This document shows positions 2,807-45,104 of a DNA stretch of 64,000 nt, piece after piece (position 1 is the stretch's first letter; each line of letters opens with the position of its first letter). Source of the stretch: Minisyncoccia bacterium (GTDB lineage: Bacteria > Patescibacteriota > Minisyncoccia > Phycocordibacterales > Phycocordibacteraceae). Below the pieces are notes generated by a model. That model did not search any database, was not told the DNA's origin, and worked only from the letters and a program-made list of their open reading frames with translations. The translations under genes were made by a program, and so were the position numbers. Location of the stretch: NCBI GenBank assembly GCA_038912545.1, contig JBCLFD010000001.1, positions 18,956 to 82,955 of the forward strand. Reading direction: 5' to 3'.

Positions 2807-4531
2807 ATGTTTCCGTTACACGACTCACTTGATGAAAAGATACGAAAAGAACTGGGCGCATATGACGATCTGACTGCCGCATTACTGTCGCGGCGCGGAG
2901 TGGTGACGAAAGCAGATGCGCAAATGTATTTACAACCGTCATACGATTTGCATCTGCACGATCCACTTATGATGACGGACATGCCGAAAGCCGCCGAGCG
3001 GCTTTCCCGTGCAATTCTTTCAGGAGAAAAAATTGCGGTGTGGAGCGACTACGACTGCGACGGCATTCCGGGCGCGGTCCTGCTCCACGATTTTTTGAAA
3101 AAAGTCGGTGCACAATTTGAAAATTATATTCCGCATCGACACTTAGAAGGGTACGGAATGAATGTGGCCGGCGTGGAGAAGCTGGCAAAAAATGGCGTCA
3201 CATTAATTGTGACGGTTGACTCGGGCATTACCGATGTCGCGCCAGTGACTCGTGCGAATGAGCTTGGTATAGAAGTCATCGTCACTGACCATCACTTGCC
3301 AGGTGAAACATTGCCACCCGCATACGCCGTGGTGAATCCAAATGCTCGCCCCGATGAAAAATATTTGTACAAAAGTTTGTGCGGTTCGGGCGTCGCATGG
3401 AAGCTCGTCTGCGCCGTGCTCGCTACCAATCCGATAGTGCGTGAACGGGTTCCTGTCGGCTGGGAGAAATGGTTGCTGGACATGGTCGGGCTCGCGACTA
3501 TTGCGGACATGGTGCCTCTCACTGGCGAAAACCGTTTACTTGCTACGTATGGACTGCTCGTTATGCGAAAGTCACCGCGGCTCGGTCTACAGAAACTCTG
3601 TCGCGGAGCGCGCGTTGAACAACGAAACATATCAGAAGACGACGTTGGCTTTATGATTGCACCTCGGGTGAATGCTGCGAGCCGTATGGGGGATGCGCGC
3701 GACGTCTTCACGCTCTTCACGACTACCAATGAATCAGAGGCCGACGAGCTTGTTAAAAAATTAGAGAAAGCGAACAGAGAGAGAAAAGCATCTGCTGGTG
3801 CTATCACGCGCGCCGTGCATACGCGAATCAGGGAGAATGGCGCCGTTGCCGATATCATCGTACTCGGCGACCCCGAGTGGCGACCTGGACTGCTCGGCCT
3901 CGTCGCGAACACGATTGCCGAGGAATATGAGCGTCCTGTTTTTCTCTGGGGACGTGAAGGGAATATGAGCATAAAGGGGTCGGTGCGGAGCGGAGAAGTG
4001 CATGCGCTCCACCTTATGCGTTCGGCCGGTGATGTGTTTGTTGAATTCGGCGGACATGCCGCGGCGGGCGGTTTCACTGTGCGTGATGGCGCAGTTTTCT
4101 CTCTAGAAGAGCGCCTGATGAAAGCGCACGCAGAACTTCGCGCGAGGGTGGCAGACGAGGACCCGCTCGTCGCGCGTGCGGATGCGGAACTCAATCTTGA
4201 AGAAATTTCTCCATCGTTCTTTGAGAAGGTCTCTCTGCTCGCCCCCTTCGGCATGGAGAACCCAAAACCTTTGTTTCTGCTCCGCAACGTTGTTGTGAAC
4301 AATATTTCCACATTCGGAAAAGCGAATGAACATCTTAAATTGAATATTGGAACCGAAACGGGCAATCGGTCATTTGACGCCGTGACTTTTTTTGCAAAAG
4401 GAAACATTGCGCGTGTAGCAAAAATGCTGACCCGTGGAGGTCACGCGCATCTGCTCGCACACATAGAACGCGATTCTTTTTCCCGCGCACATCCGATTCG
4501 CCTGCGACTGATTGATATCCGCGCGGTATAA
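2807..4531 (+). CDS. recJ: single-stranded-DNA-specific exonuclease RecJ
   Basis: DHH/DHHA1 motifs (DYDCDG, VTVDSGITD, VTDHH). Start trimmed to MFPLHDSLDEK. Confidence 0.85.
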   Translation: MFPLHDSLDEKIRKELGAYDDLTAALLSRRGVVTKADAQMYLQPSYDLHLHDPLMMTDMPKAAERLSRAILSGEKIAVWSDYDCDGIPGAVLLHDFLKKVGAQFENYIPHRHLEGYGMNVAGVEKLAKNGVTLIVTVDSGITDVAPVTRANELGIEVIVTDHHLPGETLPPAYAVVNPNARPDEKYLYKSLCGSGVAWKLVCAVLATNPIVRERVPVGWEKWLLDMVGLATIADMVPLTGENRLLATYGLLVMRKSPRLGLQKLCRGARVEQRNISEDDVGFMIAPRVNAASRMGDARDVFTLFTTTNESEADELVKKLEKANRERKASAGAITRAVHTRIRENGAVADIIVLGDPEWRPGLLGLVANTIAEEYERPVFLWGREGNMSIKGSVRSGEVHALHLMRSAGDVFVEFGGHAAAGGFTVRDGAVFSLEERLMKAHAELRARVADEDPLVARADAELNLEEISPSFFEKVSLLAPFGMENPKPLFLLRNVVVNNISTFGKANEHLKLNIGTETGNRSFDAVTFFAKGNIARVAKMLTRGGHAHLLAHIERDSFSRAHPIRLRLIDIRAV

Positions 4532-4539
4532 TTCACCCG

Positions 4540-4959
4540 ATGAAATTCACCATCCATGCCGACGGGGGAGCGAGGGGGAATCCGGGGCCCTCCGGAGCGG
4601 GTGCGATGATACGCGATGAGCTCGGCAATTCGGTCAGAGCGGTCTCTGCCTACCTCGGACATCGCACTAATAACTATGCTGAATATGAAGCGGTCATTCG
4701 CGCATTTGATGAATTGCTTAAACTGGTGCCGGCAGGCAAACGTAACAAAACAGAAGTCGCAGTAAAAATGGACAGTGAATTGGTCGTGAAGCAAATGCGT
4801 GGAGAATATAAAGTGAAGCATCCGGTCTTGAAAGAACAGTACGCGCGACTCGTACACAACATCGGTGCATTCGGCAAAGTCACGTTTATGCACGTCTTCC
4901 GCGAAGAAAACTCTGACGCCGACGCCCTCGCGAACGCCGCGATGGATAGGGGAGCATGA
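4540..4959 (+). CDS. rnhA: ribonuclease HI
   Basis: ADGGARGNPGPSG...NNYAEYEA...SDADALAN is the RNase H fold signature. Confidence 0.8.
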   Translation: MKFTIHADGGARGNPGPSGAGAMIRDELGNSVRAVSAYLGHRTNNYAEYEAVIRAFDELLKLVPAGKRNKTEVAVKMDSELVVKQMRGEYKVKHPVLKEQYARLVHNIGAFGKVTFMHVFREENSDADALANAAMDRGA

Positions 4960-6509
4960 TCGGACTTGTTGCTATCGTTACGGGTTTTGCGAGCGGGATA
5001 TTTTCCCGCTCGTTGCTTTTTGAGAGTTGGTGGCCGATATTTTTTGCGCTCTTGCTCGCGCTTATATTTTTTGTCGCAAGTTTTCTAACGACGCGCCGAG
5101 CGTACACGCTCGGCGCGTTGTTTTGTATGTGCCTCGTGCTCGGCGGATTGCGTGCTGGGCTCGCCGAGTCGCCGTTACCGAGCACCTTTCTCGCCGACCT
5201 GAAGCATCGCGTCACGTATGAGGCGCTCGTCGTGGGCGATCCTGACCTGCGCGATACGAATCAGCGTGTCGCACTCTTGGTTACGAAAGGAGATGCAAAA
5301 GTAAAAATGCTCGCGGTCGCGTCGCGCACGTCGGAAGTGAAGGTGGGAGACACGGTCAACGTCTCCGGCACGCTCTCGGTCCCCGAATCGTTTGCTGACG
5401 ACAATGGTCGTATTTTTCGTTACGACAAATATCTGGAGCGCGACGGCATTCGCTTTATGCTGAATTTCGCCTATCTGCGTGTCGTGCAGACGGCTCCACG
5501 ATATTCCATACCTGCTGTGCTTGCGCGAATAAAACATTCATTCCTTGACGGACTCCAAGCATCCTTGCCGGAGCCATACGCATCGCTTGCAGGAGGAGTC
5601 GTGATAGGAGGAAAGTCCGGTCTTGGAAATGAACTGAAAGATGCGTTCACGCGCTCGGGGCTCGTGCATATCGTCGTGCTCTCGGGCCACAACGTAATGA
5701 TTGTTGCGAGTTGGGCGATTGCATTCTTTATTTTCTTCTTCGCCCGAGCCGAAACTATCTTTAGAGTTCGCATCCCGCGCGGTGCAAGCATCGTAGCCGG
5801 AGCACTTGCGCTCATTCTCTTCGTCGGCATCGCGGGATTCTCGGCGACGGCAATCCGCGCGGCGCTCATGGCTCTCATCGCGCTCTATGCTCGGGCGACC
5901 GGCCGGACCTATGCGGCCGGTCGCGCGCTCCTTGTTGTTATTTTTCTTATGCTCCTTTGGAATCCCCTCTATCTCGTTTTTGACCCAGGATTCGGTCTCT
6001 CAGTTGTCGCCACTGCAGGGCTCATCTGGCTTGCGCCTATCATTGATACGTTTTTGCCGATGAGAAATGCTTTCTTGAAAAATATATTGGCAACAGCGCT
6101 CGCGGCGCAAGTCGCCGTTCTCCCTCTTCTTTTGTACTTCACTGGCAATCTCTCACTCGTCGCCATTCCCGCAAATATTGTTGCCGCGCTCGTGGTTCCG
6201 TTTGCCATGGCGTTTTCTTATCTCGCCGGCTTCGGCGGAATACTCTTCGGTTCGACTGCGCTCACCGCAGGCGGCTCCTCTACAGCGTTTCTCGCCATCA
6301 TTCTTGGCATGCCCGCGTATGGTGCGGCGACGGCCCTCATTGAGCTCGCACGAGCGAGCGCAGCGCTTCCATTCGCCGCTGTTATGCTCCCGCCCTTCCC
6401 ATTTTGGCTCGTACTTCTCGCGTATACGGCGCTTATTTATTTCGTTGCGTCGTCGTATCGTTTCTCAACGACTGACCAATTAAGGTTCGCGAAAAATGCA
6501 TCCACGTAA
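4956..6509 (+). CDS. comEC: competence protein ComEC/Rec2 (DUF4131 + Competence domain, no MBL domain)
   Basis: Polytopic membrane protein. LAGGVVIGGKSGLGNELKDAFTRSGLVHIVVLSGHNVMIV matches the ComEC core. Confidence 0.75.
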   Translation: MIGLVAIVTGFASGIFSRSLLFESWWPIFFALLLALIFFVASFLTTRRAYTLGALFCMCLVLGGLRAGLAESPLPSTFLADLKHRVTYEALVVGDPDLRDTNQRVALLVTKGDAKVKMLAVASRTSEVKVGDTVNVSGTLSVPESFADDNGRIFRYDKYLERDGIRFMLNFAYLRVVQTAPRYSIPAVLARIKHSFLDGLQASLPEPYASLAGGVVIGGKSGLGNELKDAFTRSGLVHIVVLSGHNVMIVASWAIAFFIFFFARAETIFRVRIPRGASIVAGALALILFVGIAGFSATAIRAALMALIALYARATGRTYAAGRALLVVIFLMLLWNPLYLVFDPGFGLSVVATAGLIWLAPIIDTFLPMRNAFLKNILATALAAQVAVLPLLLYFTGNLSLVAIPANIVAALVVPFAMAFSYLAGFGGILFGSTALTAGGSSTAFLAIILGMPAYGAATALIELARASAALPFAAVMLPPFPFWLVLLAYTALIYFVASSYRFSTTDQLRFAKNAST

Positions 6510-40745: not shown

Positions 40746-40784
40746 CTACTTTTGTACGCGCACTACGAAGCTTTAGCGAAGTAG

Positions 40785-40856
40785 TGCTCTCGGTCAGAAT
40801 CGAACTGACATTGGCCCCTTCGGAGGGGGCTATCCTATCCGTTGAATGACGAGAGC
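40785..40856 (-). tRNA. tRNA-Arg (anticodon CCG)
   Basis: Hand fold. Acceptor GCTCTCG/CGAGAGC, anticodon stem GCCCC/GGGGC, loop CTCCGAA, T-arm GTCAG-TTCGATT-CTGAC. Confidence 0.8.
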
Positions 40857-40939
40857 ATTCTTTCTCCATATTACTCCTCATTAGATTTGGCACAGGCGGG
40901 GAGCCGCATTGGTGCTTGCCCCGTAGCTAACGCGAAGCG

Positions 40940-41488
40940 TTATGGTACTGGGGACAATGCATTCTTGATTTTTTCTTTAACTTGTATAGGAACGTCTTTA
41001 TCCTCAGCAAGTTTTGTGAAAAATGGATATAGGTAACGCCGATTATTTTTTGAGATTAGCAACTGAAAAAATTTATCTGTATAGAAATATGTGTCAGAAG
41101 CATCAAAATCATACATTACAAGTTTTGAAACATTGATATCATCGTAATCATTGATAGAAATCCAACCAATTTTACTCCCATATTTTATACCGGTCGCCCT
41201 GCTGAAAAAACAGCCCGCGGGGCAATCTCGAGCCTCGCCATAATTTATTTTAAAAACTTTCAGATTTTGTGTCGGAACATTGACAAGAATATTAACCCGT
41301 TGACTTTTGGGGAAATCAGCACTTTTAACAAAATTATTAATAACATCGTCGGAACCTATAGATGCTAGAAAATATGGCAAAATTATGTCTCCCTGTTTTT
41401 GTATAAAAATATAACCAACCACACCAAGAATGATAATGATTATTCCAATCAAAATTATATTCACAAATCCTTTTTGATTTATTTTCAT
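40940..41488 (-). CDS. membrane-anchored protein of unknown function (AT-rich gene)
   Basis: MKINQKGFVNIILIGIIIIILG TM anchor. The listed N-terminus overlaps tRNA-Arg(GCG) and was trimmed. C-terminus ...IQVKEKIKNALSPVP. Confidence 0.5.
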   Translation of the reverse strand: MKINQKGFVNIILIGIIIIILGVVGYIFIQKQGDIILPYFLASIGSDDVINNFVKSADFPKSQRVNILVNVPTQNLKVFKINYGEARDCPAGCFFSRATGIKYGSKIGWISINDYDDINVSKLVMYDFDASDTYFYTDKFFQLLISKNNRRYLYPFFTKLAEDKDVPIQVKEKIKNALSPVP

Positions 41489-41597
41489 AGATTTATTAGT
41501 TATAATTTTCGACTTTATGATTAAAAAATTTTCTTCCCCCAAAATTAAAATACGGTTCAAGCCGATGTTTCCCGAGCCTATTCTACCATATCCTATT

Positions 41598-41672
41598 TGG
41601 TGCTCTCGACAGGAATCGAACCTGTATTGGTAGCTCCGCAAGCTACTGTCCTATCCGTTGAACGACGAGAGC
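41598..41672 (-). tRNA. tRNA-Arg (anticodon GCG), CCA encoded
   Basis: Hand fold. Same acceptor/D-arm as the CCG isoacceptor, anticodon stem GTAGC/GCTAC, loop TTGCGGA, T-arm ACAGG-TTCGATT-CCTGT. Confidence 0.75.
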
Positions 41673-42320: not shown

Positions 42321-42752
42321 ATGTTCAAAACTATCATCGCTTTGTTGTTCGTCGCGTTTGTTGCGGCAGGTTGTGTGTCTGTGCCGGTCGATGATCGACC
42401 GGTGGTTGCGGGCTTGCATCTCGGCAAGAATATTTTGTCGAGACCACTTGCTGCTGATGCACGACTGCCTCGTGGCTGCACGTACGATAACGACGGGACA
42501 AAGTACGGTTCCGTGCTCTGCGAGCAGGCACGCGCACCGGTTCGACAATACGTCGAGACGCCCGTCTACGTAGCGCCGGTTTGCGGGCCGTATGGATGTC
42601 CCGTTGTGGCGCCCGCGTACTCGAGCGTACAGATCTGGCGCGGGGGATTTGCAGTTCAATCGGGGCCCATGTATGGGCCAATGTTCGGACCCGCATACGT
42701 TCCCGTTCGGCAGTGCAACATGTGGTGGCCGTACAACTGCTGGTACCGATAA
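42321..42752 (+). CDS. Cys/Pro/Tyr-rich lipoprotein
   Basis: Lipobox LLFVAFVAAGC, 9 Cys, repeated PxY(G)P motifs, terminator immediately after. Confidence 0.5.
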   Translation: MFKTIIALLFVAFVAAGCVSVPVDDRPVVAGLHLGKNILSRPLAADARLPRGCTYDNDGTKYGSVLCEQARAPVRQYVETPVYVAPVCGPYGCPVVAPAYSSVQIWRGGFAVQSGPMYGPMFGPAYVPVRQCNMWWPYNCWYR

Positions 42753-42778
42753 AACTATCGCCCTCCGATAGTTCGCAA

Positions 42779-42808
42779 CGCTAAAGGGCATCCGATGGAT
42801 GCCCTTTT
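42779..42808 (+). terminator. Rho-independent terminator (AAAGGGCATCC-gatg-GATGCCCTTT + TTC)
   Basis: Perfect 10-bp stem with flanking A/T runs; could act bidirectionally. Confidence 0.6.
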
Positions 42809-42921
42809 TCTATTGTAGGATTGTGGTTGCCATATTTGACTTATTATCTCAATAATATCATTTTTCAGCTCACTAAACCATTGCATTAATTTTATACCTT
42901 GTGTATACTATAGTTATCACT

Positions 42922-43614
42922 ATGAAATCAACACAGCAACAAAATATGTTCGGTTTATCTAATAAACAGACTGGTTATTCTGTTTATAACGAGGATGCAA
43001 AAAAACGAGCAAAGCAAAATACACTCTCGGAACTTTATCCTAAATTGCCGAACAAAAAATTTGATGTAATTTATGCTGATCCACCTTGGGATTATAATGG
43101 TAAGTTGCAATTTGATAAAAGTAGTACAAATGTAGAAAATCTGGATTTGTCGCGGAAGATATTTATCAGTTCGGCTTCATTTAAATATCCGACACTAAAA
43201 ACAACTGAACTAATGAAATTACCTGTTCAAGAAATTGCAAAAGGTGATTGCTTATTATTCATGTGGACATCAAATCCACATTTGGCTCAAGCGATAGAAC
43301 TTGGTAATGCCTGGGGTTTTGATTATAAAACTGTTGCTTTTGTTTGGGATAAAATGAATCACAATCCTGGGCAATACACACTTTCAAATTGTGAGATATG
43401 TCTAGTATTCAAAAGAGGCAAGATACCAAGACCACGCGGAGCAAGAAATATAAAACAGTTGGTTAGAAGTCCGAGAAAAAAACACAGCGAGAAACCAATG
43501 GAGGTAATTCAAGCAATAGAAAAAATGTTTCCTAATCAAGAACGCATCGAATTATTTGCAAGACGAAAAACGGACGGTTGGTCAGTTTGGGGATTAGATG
43601 TGTTTAACGAGTAA
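42922..43614 (+). CDS. MT-A70-family N6-adenine DNA methyltransferase (R-M system M subunit)
   Basis: DVIYADPPWDYNGK (DPPW motif IV), MT-A70-like fold order. AT-rich. ATG at 42922 preferred over the listed GTG at 42901. Confidence 0.75.
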   Translation: MKSTQQQNMFGLSNKQTGYSVYNEDAKKRAKQNTLSELYPKLPNKKFDVIYADPPWDYNGKLQFDKSSTNVENLDLSRKIFISSASFKYPTLKTTELMKLPVQEIAKGDCLLFMWTSNPHLAQAIELGNAWGFDYKTVAFVWDKMNHNPGQYTLSNCEICLVFKRGKIPRPRGARNIKQLVRSPRKKHSEKPMEVIQAIEKMFPNQERIELFARRKTDGWSVWGLDVFNE

Positions 43615-43624
43615 AACAAATAGT

Positions 43625-44236
43625 CTACATCAGCAAACGCTTCAATTTCTTATTGAAATGGTCAACTAGAGATTTTCCATTTAACGAATTACTCCACATA
43701 AAGAAATGGCCAGAATGGCCTGTATACCAACAGTGAATTTCTCTTACTCTTTTTGGATCTCTAGCAATATCACCTTGAAATACGACCCAAAAAGGTAAAA
43801 CATTCTGACCAAGTTTTCCTTGTTCTCTTAATATCTTCAATAGACCCGGGGTAAAAAACTTATTGGATCTTTCATGGGCATTTCCTCTACCAGCTTTTCT
43901 TGGCTTTCCTTCTACCCACCCGTCTTGTCTTTTAACTTCCACATAAAGAGTCTTTTTAGTCTTTAGATTATCAATAGCAAAATCTGGCACTACTCCATGA
44001 ACCCAAGTTTCGTTCGGATTATAAATTGCAGATAAAGTTTCTTTGCTGAGTTTTATTTTTGAATAGATATCTTTGAATTCTCGTGGTTTAGAACGAACTC
44101 TAAAATCGGTACCCTTGAATTCTTTTGAGAGTATTTCATAAAAATTTTTCTCAGCAATCCCAGCCTTACCTCCGCTAGCATTTTGCCAATTCTCTCTTTT
44201 TCGTAATGCTTTTGTTCCCATAAATTTATTTTTCAA
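43625..44236 (-). CDS. putative Type II restriction endonuclease (PD-(D/E)xK)
   Basis: VPDFAIDNL...YVEVKRQ fits PD...ExK. Convergent with the MTase, directly downstream of and overlapping a C-protein gene. Confidence 0.55.
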   Translation of the reverse strand: MKNKFMGTKALRKRENWQNASGGKAGIAEKNFYEILSKEFKGTDFRVRSKPREFKDIYSKIKLSKETLSAIYNPNETWVHGVVPDFAIDNLKTKKTLYVEVKRQDGWVEGKPRKAGRGNAHERSNKFFTPGLLKILREQGKLGQNVLPFWVVFQGDIARDPKRVREIHCWYTGHSGHFFMWSNSLNGKSLVDHFNKKLKRLLM

Positions 44237-44444
44237 AAATCATTAGTTTATCAAGTGAGATCTCAAGAGCTTTAGCAATTTTTTCTATGTTTTGGAGTGT
44301 GATATTTTTTTCTGCACGCTCAATCATTCCAACATAGGTTCGATGGACACCTGCTCGTGAAGCTAATTCTTCCTGAGACAAATCTAAGGATAATCGTTTT
44401 TCGCGTACTTTATTTCCAAACTTTACCAACACATCTTTTTTCAT
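44226..44444 (-). CDS. controller (C) protein, XRE-family HTH regulator
   Basis: 72-aa HTH_3 (LSQEELASRAGVHRTYVGMIERAEKNITLQNIEKIAKAL); overlaps the R gene start by 11 nt. Confidence 0.7.
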   Translation of the reverse strand: MKKDVLVKFGNKVREKRLSLDLSQEELASRAGVHRTYVGMIERAEKNITLQNIEKIAKALEISLDKLMIFEK

Positions 44445-44448
44445 AATG

Positions 44449-44462
44449 ATAACTATAGTATA
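44449..44462 (-). promoter_or_regulatory. C-box-like operator/promoter element TATACTATAGTTAT, 5 nt 5' of the C-protein ATG (second copy 42904-42917 5' of the M gene)
   Basis: Identical 14-mer (21-nt near-identity including ATGAAA) in the same orientation relative to both genes. Contains the palindrome ACTATAGT and a TATAGT/TAGTTAT -10-like hexamer. Confidence 0.45.
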
Positions 44463-44574
44463 TGCTCTTGCTAATTTAAGCTCTACATACTACAGTTAGC
44501 ATATATGTTAATCTAATTATTAGACGACGCTTCGCGCCGACCCCATTTCGGCTTCCAATTCCGATTTCCAATTT

Positions 44575-44661
44575 TGGCGGAAGGGGTGGGACTCGAACCC
44601 ACAAGGGCTTGTGACCCGCCAGTTTTCAAGACTGGTTCCTTACCATTCGGAGCACCCTTCC
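44575..44661 (-). tRNA. tRNA-Ser (anticodon TGA), class II, CCA encoded
   Basis: Hand fold. Acceptor GGAAGGG/CCCTTCC, anticodon stem CCAGT/ACTGG, loop CTTGAAA, long variable arm, T-arm GTGGG-TTCGAGT-CCCAC. Confidence 0.85.
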
Positions 44662-44690
44662 AAGTAGTAATTGTACGCTACACTTATACC

Positions 44691-45104
44691 ATGAGATATC
44701 TCGGTATTGACTATGGGAGCCAAAAAGTCGGCCTCGCGCTCTCGGACGAAACGGGAGTTATGGGCTTCCCGCACAGCATCGTCCCGAACACCCCTCGGCT
44801 TGTTGATGATGTGTGCAAGCTTATTGCTAAAGAGAATGTTGGCGCGGTAGTGATAGGGGAGTCACGAACGCTCGCGGGCGGAGAAAATGCGATTGCCAAA
44901 GACGCGGTCGCGTTCGGCGACCTACTCGCCGAACGCGCGGGCGTGCCGATTTTTTACGAATCAGAAGTATTCACGACGGCAGAAGCGCGTCGCCAGCATG
45001 AACCGAGCGGGAAAACGCGCGCACCTAAAAAACATGTAAACGTGGACGATTCCGCCGCCGCGCTTATTTTAACGAGTTATCTCGCGCGGGCGCGCTATAC
45101 TTAA
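44691..45104 (+). CDS. ruvX: Holliday-junction-resolvase-like nuclease YqgF/RuvX
   Basis: MRYLGIDYGSQKVGLALSD. The listed N-terminus is translated tRNA-Ser antisense and was trimmed. Confidence 0.8.
   Translation: MRYLGIDYGSQKVGLALSDETGVMGFPHSIVPNTPRLVDDVCKLIAKENVGAVVIGESRTLAGGENAIAKDAVAFGDLLAERAGVPIFYESEVFTTAEARRQHEPSGKTRAPKKHVNVDDSAAALILTSYLARARYT

Follow-up and report, generated by a model that had tools for sequence, protein, structure and literature searches.

Controller-protein circuits decide whether a restriction-modification (R-M) system can enter a new cell without killing its host. Few such circuits have been dissected so far, all of them from cultivable bacteria. In the Esp1396I system, the methyltransferase gene (M) is convergent with a transcription unit encoding the controller protein and the restriction endonuclease (C-R); a single site for a C dimer on the M promoter (P_M) excludes RNA polymerase, and a left, activating operator and a right, repressing one (O_L and O_R) lie at the C-R promoter (P_CR) (Bogdanova et al. 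2009, PMC2691842). In the BclI and EcoRV systems, too, C represses M besides controlling R (PMC2094064; PMC2691842), and a 2025 review describes repression of M by C in some systems (PMC12707154). Here we describe a MunI-type R-M cassette in a 64,000-nucleotide stretch of DNA from a Minisyncoccia bacterium (contig JBCLFD010000001.1, positions 18,956 to 82,955; hereafter the window), in which a 24-nt element is found on the start codons of both M and C. Comparison with related loci suggests that the element is a promoter -10 hexamer built into a C-protein operator, and that the cassette probably uses a circuit of the Esp1396I type.

The locus shares with Esp1396I its convergent units and, as far as comparison of sequences can indicate, a 35-bp double operator at a weak C-R promoter and a single operator on a strong M promoter. 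It differs in having a predicted third site on the C-R core promoter, where Esp1396I has none, and a -10 built into the operator at both promoters. The operators themselves are also distinct (GACT-TAT-AGTC type in Esp1396I versus GCTAACTA-TAGT here), and the enzymes are unrelated. EcoRV is arranged differently again: its divergent genes share one C-box, which acts on both promoters by interference, whereas the window has a separate operator copy on a distant, convergent M promoter. A further published site that we considered, the Mollicutes C-protein site (GTGTTAN5)2, is unrelated to the operators of the window.

A near-identical element overlaps the start codons of M and C

The 24-nt repeat, TATACTATAGTTATCA(C/T)TATGAAA, occurs as one copy at 42904-42927 on the plus strand (TATACTATAGTTATCACTATGAAA) and a second at 44439-44462 on the minus strand (TATACTATAGTTATCATTATGAAA). 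The copies are identical at 23 of 24 positions, and they overlap the start codons of M and C, respectively. Both were recovered by motif search and by a repeat finder, which reports them as a 24-nt inverted repeat, 96% complementary, with 1511 nt between the arms. When up to 3 mismatches are allowed, these two are the element's only matches in the window, and 100 dinucleotide-preserving shuffles of the window yielded none. The core palindrome, ACTATAGT, is similarly restricted, with just two occurrences in 64 kb, both within the 24-nt copies. Immediately outside the copies the flanks diverge (ccttgtg versus aagagca upstream; TCA versus AAA downstream).

These results bear on an earlier annotation of the window made without database searches (the sequence-only reading), which had placed the same element on the M and C start codons and had seen a perfect palindrome, a 14-mer, within it. 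The element is indeed at those positions and nowhere else in the window, and the same is true of its palindrome. The accompanying figure of 20 matches in 21 positions including the first two codons was a slight miscount: 20 of 21 holds up to the ATG, and the count through the second codon is 23 of 24. Shuffle controls exclude chance as the source of the repeat, and equally of the operator pattern and the operator offset described below.

The element is best explained as a -10 hexamer built into an operator

The C protein of the window belongs to a very large and tightly conserved clade (6404 database proteins at E ≤ 1e-5, the top matches being 79-89% identical). For comparison we assembled 80 genomic loci encoding relatives 63-81% identical to it, mostly from metagenome-assembled genomes of Patescibacteria, with others from Chloroflexota, Deltaproteobacteria, Cyanobacteria, Nitrospirota and Bacteroidota. 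Of these 80 loci, 71 have a 31-nt C-box core, GCTAACTATAGTATGTAGAACTAAAGTTAGC, ahead of C. In the window, family comparison locates it, with 4 mismatches in 31 to the consensus, within a 35-bp double C-box comprising O_L and O_R (ATGCTAACTGTAGTATGTAGAGCTTAAATTAGCAA; 44468-44502, minus strand). The design of the box, two even palindromic operators 15 bp apart with a central TGTA-type spacer and complementary outer arms (GCTAAC...GTTAGC), is like that of PvuII/AhdI-type C-boxes, which are also 35 bp long, with two palindromic operators about 15 bp apart, a TGTA-like sequence at the centre and outer bases that complement each other (Sorokin et al. 2009, PMC2632904; Mruk et al. 2007, PMC2175313).

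The O_L core (ACTGTAGT; 44489-44496, minus strand) is centred near -42.5. O_R is centred near -27.5, over the weak -35-like TAGAGC of the C-R promoter (44480-44485, minus strand), which lies inside the C-box, matches the consensus at 3 of 6 positions and precedes TATACT by 17 nt. A TAYAMT hexamer, usually TATACT, stands 7 nt after the C-box in 44 of the 71 loci and within 1 nt of that position in 54. This well-conserved TATACT sets the family apart from the C genes surveyed by Sorokin et al., who reported no reliable -10 upstream (PMC2632904).

Written in a common orientation, the family consensus is tGCTAAcTATAGTATGTAG for O_L, TGCTAACTaTAGTATACA for the reverse complement of the M-side site and tGaTAACTaTAGTATA for the reverse complement of the C-proximal site. 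The element of the window matches the inverted O_L consensus at 15 of 16 positions. Aligned in this way, it appears to be an inverted copy of O_L in which the inner half-site CATACT has become TATACT, placing a -10 within the operator. The best explanation of the element from these comparisons is thus a composite module, consisting of a sigma-70-type -10, TATACT, and one operator for a C dimer, centred at about -5.5 at both promoters.

At M, the inverted O_L consensus defines a single predicted C operator, O_M (GTATACTA-TAGTTATC; 42903-42918, plus strand), which is centred near -5.5 and overlaps the -10 and the predicted transcription start. Its TATACT (42904-42909, plus strand) is the hexamer present in 27 of 35 related M-side operators, and a -35-like TTGCAT (42881-42886, plus strand) lies 17 nt before it. 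At C, a predicted third operator, O3 (ATATACTA-TAGTTATC; 44448-44463, minus strand), occupies the C-R core promoter with the same centre near -5.5 and holds TATACT at 44457-44462. Its outer half-site, AGTTA[GT]C, follows the C-box at a constant distance in 22 of the 71 loci and within 1 nt of that distance in 30, compared with 0.2 in shuffles; about a third of the loci have O3 on the C core promoter. The forms of the outer half-site differ between the two sites across the family, with TTAGC in 28 of 35 O_M sites and, among O3 sites, TTATC in 13 and TTAGC in 11. A stronger O_M outer half-site at the family level would fit repression of M ahead of C-R. In the window, O_M and O3 have a common 15-bp core, ATACTATAGTTATC, and differ at the outermost base alone (G versus A).

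The sequence-only reading had taken the element itself for a putative C-box. Our comparison bears out the view that it holds a C-protein operator, and adds the principal double C-box farther upstream, which that reading missed. The -10 that it proposed, TATAGT/TAGTTAT, gives way to TATACT, the first six bases of the element, since this is the hexamer conserved at a fixed distance from the C-box.

Two further observations concern the distribution of these operators. Seven loci of Bacteroidota type (L062, L064, L065, L066, L070, L073 and L074) are without the standard double box upstream of C; there, O_L is followed about 30 nt later by a CATACT-type operator (such as gCATACTAAAATTAGCAATG) that ends on or next to the start codon. 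Bacteroidota promoters follow a different consensus. In addition, an 18-mer of the C-box, GCTAACTATAGTATGTAG, was found exactly in three IMG/VR viral contigs (L081, L082 and L083), indicating that this family of C proteins and operators is also carried on predicted phage or viral DNA.

The operator accompanies methyltransferase genes of five families

We scanned the 80 loci for a 12-mer of the operator at no more than 1 mismatch, excluding the C promoter itself. The matches are confined to a single strand and side: 36 lie downstream of C on the antisense strand, and the other three strand/side classes have 0, 0 and 0 (shuffles, 0.72). Of the 80 loci, 65 include 2.5 kb or more of sequence downstream of C; 36 of these have an M-side operator followed within 0-43 nt by a long open reading frame (ORF). 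All 39 ORFs behind M-side operators, together with M of the window, are DNA methyltransferases, and they belong to five Pfam families (16 N6_N4_Mtase, 9 D12, 7 MT-A70, 6 C5 and 2 Eco57I/N6_Mtase). The sole conserved feature upstream of these M-side operators is a TTG before TATACT, at 17 nt in 17 of 36 and at 16 nt in 6 of 36.

As judged from these alignments, the conserved unit is a -35 TTG, a 17-nt spacer and a TATACT fused to the operator, irrespective of the enzyme that is controlled. Such independence from the enzyme fits a regulator-binding site, and not a translation signal or the end of a mobile element. Co-regulation of M and C-R by one C protein, which had been proposed for this locus from the two copies of the element, now appears to be the best reading, given the recurrence of the operator at convergent methyltransferase promoters.

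A simpler view would be that the copies consist of core promoter and translation-start context only and are bound by no C protein. TATACT is a good -10, a TAnnnT hexamer is expected near genes with short leaders, AAA is common as the second codon in the C family, and in some members the C promoter has TATACT or TATAAT but no outer half-site. We nevertheless consider this view unlikely. The AGTTA[GT]C that follows the -10 is no promoter element but reproduces exactly the outer half-site of the C-box, and it is also present, as CATACTATAATTAGC, in the Bacteroidota-type loci. It has been kept before five unrelated methyltransferase families while the flanks and leader lengths vary, and the strict strand and side specificity of the operator scan likewise speaks for a bound site.

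Leaders at both promoters are predicted to be very short

With standard sigma-70 geometry, the TATACT hexamers predict that M transcription starts at A42916, giving the 6-nt leader AUCACU, and that C-R transcription starts at A44450, giving the 6-nt leader AUCAUU. The M and C-R mRNAs are thus predicted to be nearly leaderless and not strictly so, leaderless being defined as a start site 0-3 nt from the start codon (PMC2632904). Leaderless C mRNAs are established for PvuII, AhdI and EcoRV (PMC2632904; PMC2175313). The predicted C-R start falls 18 nt after the 35-mer C-box, the C-box-to-start spacing of the characterised leaderless C genes (PMC2632904). In this respect, and in the fixed short distance between the box and the C start codon, the locus is like the PvuII/AhdI-type systems. 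It is unlike them in that the ATG in this family most often lies 23-25 nt after the 35-mer, compared with 17-18 nt, so that a 5-7-nt leader is predicted and not a start at the ATG. Esp1396I differs in the opposite direction, its C leader being 27 nt long with a Shine-Dalgarno sequence and its M leader 20 nt long, versus about 6 nt predicted here.

The commonest distances from the 31-mer to the ATG across the family are 25-27 nt (32 of 71 loci), corresponding to predicted leaders of 5-7 nt; at other loci it is 30-49 nt. Short leaders therefore appear to be common in the family, and they are not obligatory. A crude search of the 20 nt ahead of M, C and R found no GGAGG-like motif (2 of 5 bases matched at best) and did not clearly separate these genes from those of the host. 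Leaderless mRNAs without a Shine-Dalgarno sequence had been predicted for both genes in the sequence-only reading. The conserved TATACT predicts about 6 nt of leader, and leader length varies among orthologous cassettes.

A promoter scan listed one minus-strand candidate near C, TTAGCA-17-TATCAT, which we rejected for this gene, as its start would fall within the C coding sequence.

Short leaders of this kind may also affect gene prediction. M as read from ATG 42922 has no exact counterpart in a collection of 15 billion proteins, in which C and R of the same contig are present, and in a related cassette (L084, around 2601) the gene caller placed the M start at an ATG within the operator. Automatic annotation probably misplaces the start codons of short-leader methylase genes, both in the window (42901-42922) and in L084.

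A proposed circuit for control of the cassette

We think it probable that the cassette is run by an Esp1396I-type circuit, in which C bound at O_L turns on C-R, and the operator that embeds the -10 lets C repress M and, probably, its own gene. Repression of M by C is suggested by the position of the operator, centred near -5.5, and by the precedent of Esp1396I. In a naive cell without C, P_M (TTGCAT-17-TATACT), with its TTG-type -35, would be strong and constitutive, and methylase would accumulate. P_CR, which has a good -10 and a poor -35 inside the double C-box, would be weak before C is present. A short leader without a Shine-Dalgarno sequence would make translation of C inefficient, so that C would build up slowly and the endonuclease would be delayed. 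Once present, C bound at O_L (-42.5, the classic activator position) would activate P_CR, and R would be made. A C dimer at O_M (-5.5) would cover the -10 and the start, excluding RNA polymerase and shutting down P_M, and C at O_R (-27.5) and O3 (-5.5) would cap C-R expression.

Several points weigh against parts of this circuit. That C binds, whether it activates or represses, and where transcription starts are all deduced from comparison of sequences, and counts over the 80 loci are slightly inflated by a few near-duplicates (L073/L074 and L069/L075). In the window, both O_M and O3 have the TTATC form and not the TTAGC commonest at M promoters of the family. With two sites so nearly identical, C should repress C-R at approximately the same concentration as M. 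This sits awkwardly with the order of events in Esp1396I, in which M is repressed first; the two promoters of the window may instead be clamped at a similar level of C. O3 is also missing from about two thirds of family members, indicating that it is not essential to the circuit. A simple promoter scan lists neither proposed promoter, each -35 matching at 3 of 6 positions, and the host probably belongs to an uncultivated lineage, for which the promoter rules are assumed. An alternative -10, TAWAGT, lies 5 nt downstream of TATACT and would give a truly leaderless start. We rank it second because it is 22 nt from the conserved TTG at M and breaks the box-to-start spacing at C.

The comparisons indicate a design that is conserved across a large R-M family; it varies a known control circuit and did not arise as a single isolated duplication. 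In the papers that we consulted we found no description of a third operator on the C-R core promoter, of a -10 built into the operator at both promoters, or of one operator spread over five methyltransferase families, mostly in uncultivated phyla. Taken with its 80 relatives, the locus suggests that repression of M by C, as in Esp1396I, is widespread and not exceptional. The operator consensus could be used to annotate C-regulated methylase genes in metagenomes and to correct their start codons, and both the additional operator at P_CR and the predicted short leaders could be checked cheaply in E. coli.

More tentatively, we speculate that a three-site design, of a kind described in no characterised system, operates across the clade. 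An inverted O_L with its built-in -10 would clamp both promoters at one level of C and hold the M:R ratio approximately constant. The C gene and its operators would then amount to a portable control cassette, placed on at least five unrelated methyltransferase families in Patescibacteria, Chloroflexota, Cyanobacteria, Bacteroidota and other groups. We regard this extension as possible, though doubtful.

Origin of the near-identity between the two copies

The same MunI-type cassette is found in five of the 80 loci, where identity to the proteins of the window is 59-81% for R and 60-81% for M (75-81% for M in L002, L004, L008 and L019). In these cassettes the M operator and promoter are conserved, and between 3 and 41 nt separate the operator from the start codon. 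The closest cassettes that we retrieved are L084 and L087, whose C proteins are 89% and 86% identical to that of the window. L084 has the full 24-mer on both genes, with the same spacing and ATGAAA (TATACTATAGTTATCAATATGAAA on the C side and TATACTATGGTTATCATTATGAAA on the M side). In L087 the 24-mer is found at C, and the M copy is degenerate. The near-identity of the copies in the window thus appears to have been inherited within a lineage of cassettes and to predate this genome.

We also weighed a recent local duplication, or gene conversion, that homogenised the two start regions. The 23 of 24 matches in the window do exceed those at most related loci with two copies, which have 17-19 of 24. 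Such an event is very unlikely, however, given the state of the two closest cassettes. Moreover, 16 of the 24 bases are the operator and -10 found family-wide, the ATG accounts for three more, and the match breaks off sharply at either end. As read from these comparisons, the 24-nt identity is mostly explained by the 16 constrained bases, together with the ATG, a frequent AAA codon and a short leader that is alike at both genes. The term exact duplicated module, applied to the element in the sequence-only reading, is accordingly one that we do not retain in the sense of a local duplication.

The inverted orientation of the copies, which flank nearly the whole cassette in an AT-rich island beside a tRNA gene, raises the different idea that they mark, as terminal inverted repeats, the ends of a small mobile element by which M, R and C are moved together. 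This is extremely improbable. The 35-bp C-box, the -35 of M and about 90 nt of AT-rich DNA on each side all fall outside the repeats, both copies overlap start codons, and many related loci have the M-side copy without a C-side copy. Among the ORFs of the island we found no transposase or integrase, and at its borders no flanking direct repeats or att-like duplications of the tRNA-Ser 3' end. An inherited operator-promoter module remains the reading that we favor.

Two of the related loci have features of separate interest. L023 contains two copies of the C-box (3448-3480 and 5122-5155) and duplicated fragments matching MunI-type R and M, which suggests that its cassette has been rearranged or tandemly duplicated. 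The MunI-type cassette of L087 lies in a neighborhood of defence genes (1034-2851 and 4611-4988), among them genes for an ApeA/HEPN protein and an Mrr-like nuclease, as well as an additional N6_N4 methylase fragment.

The cassette and its surroundings

Composition profiling together with terminator and tRNA scans places the whole M/R/C cassette in an AT-rich island at 42810-44560. The island is about 1.75 kb long with 32-37% GC, and its flanks have 52-59% GC. It is bordered by a terminator-like hairpin of the host (42783-42807) and by the 3' end of a host gene, tRNA-Ser(UGA) (44575-44661, minus strand; ARAGORN and Rfam tRNA). An Rfam scan of 42500-44800 for structured RNA returned tRNA only. 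Within the island, M points rightward and R and C leftward, so that the M and C-R transcription units converge.

M (42922-43614, plus strand; 230 amino acids) is a DNA methyltransferase of the MT-A70 family (Pfam PF05063, E = 7e-24). R (43625-44221, minus strand; 198 amino acids) is a MunI-family restriction endonuclease (Pfam PF11407, E = 5e-68) and aligns over its full length with R.MunI (PDB 1d02, E = 1e-60; residues 1-197 on 1-201), the enzyme that recognises CAATTG. C (44226-44444, minus strand; 72 amino acids) is an Xre/HTH_3 protein (Pfam HTH_3, E = 2.6e-17); its nearest solved structures are C.AhdI (E = 4.7e-13), C.BclI (E = 1.1e-12) and C.Esp1396I (E = 2.6e-08). By homology, gene position and C-box, C is a bona fide homolog of the controller proteins of type II R-M systems. 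C.MunI itself is listed by Sorokin et al. among the C proteins with known binding sites (PMC2632904). The resemblance to the MunI system extends to gene order, the C gene preceding R here: the C stop codon (44226-44228) lies 4 nt ahead of the R ATG (44221) on the same strand. On every testable feature the locus is a member of the controller-protein and MunI families, its specificity being predicted.

CAATTG, the MunI site, occurs 12 times in the window, compared with 21.3 ± 3.8 in shuffles, and is not present inside the cassette. This mild depletion fits an active CAATTG system but does not decide the question.

The stop codons of M and R face each other across a 10-nt gap (43615-43624) in which the terminator scan found no hairpin. 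The only terminator-like site near the junction lies within the R coding sequence (43708-43720, minus strand). Esp1396I differs here in having a putative bidirectional terminator between its convergent genes. With convergent transcription and no terminator hairpin, transcription of M and R could collide or yield antisense RNA.

At the other end of the cassette, between tRNA-Ser and the C-box, there is a CCAATT(T)-rich stretch (ttccaattccgatttccaatttt; 44545-44572). A similar sequence, ccaatttccaatttctcaccaatttcc, takes the place of the left half of the C-box in L010, and the likeness may be a coincidence or may reflect a shared junction sequence.

A second AT-rich island (40900-41650; 32-34% GC) lies between tRNA-Arg(CCG) (40784-40856) and tRNA-Arg(GCG) (41598-41672). 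It contains a single minus-strand ORF (40940-41641; 233 amino acids) with an apparent N-terminal membrane anchor, and it looks like another small, horizontally acquired insert beside tRNA genes.

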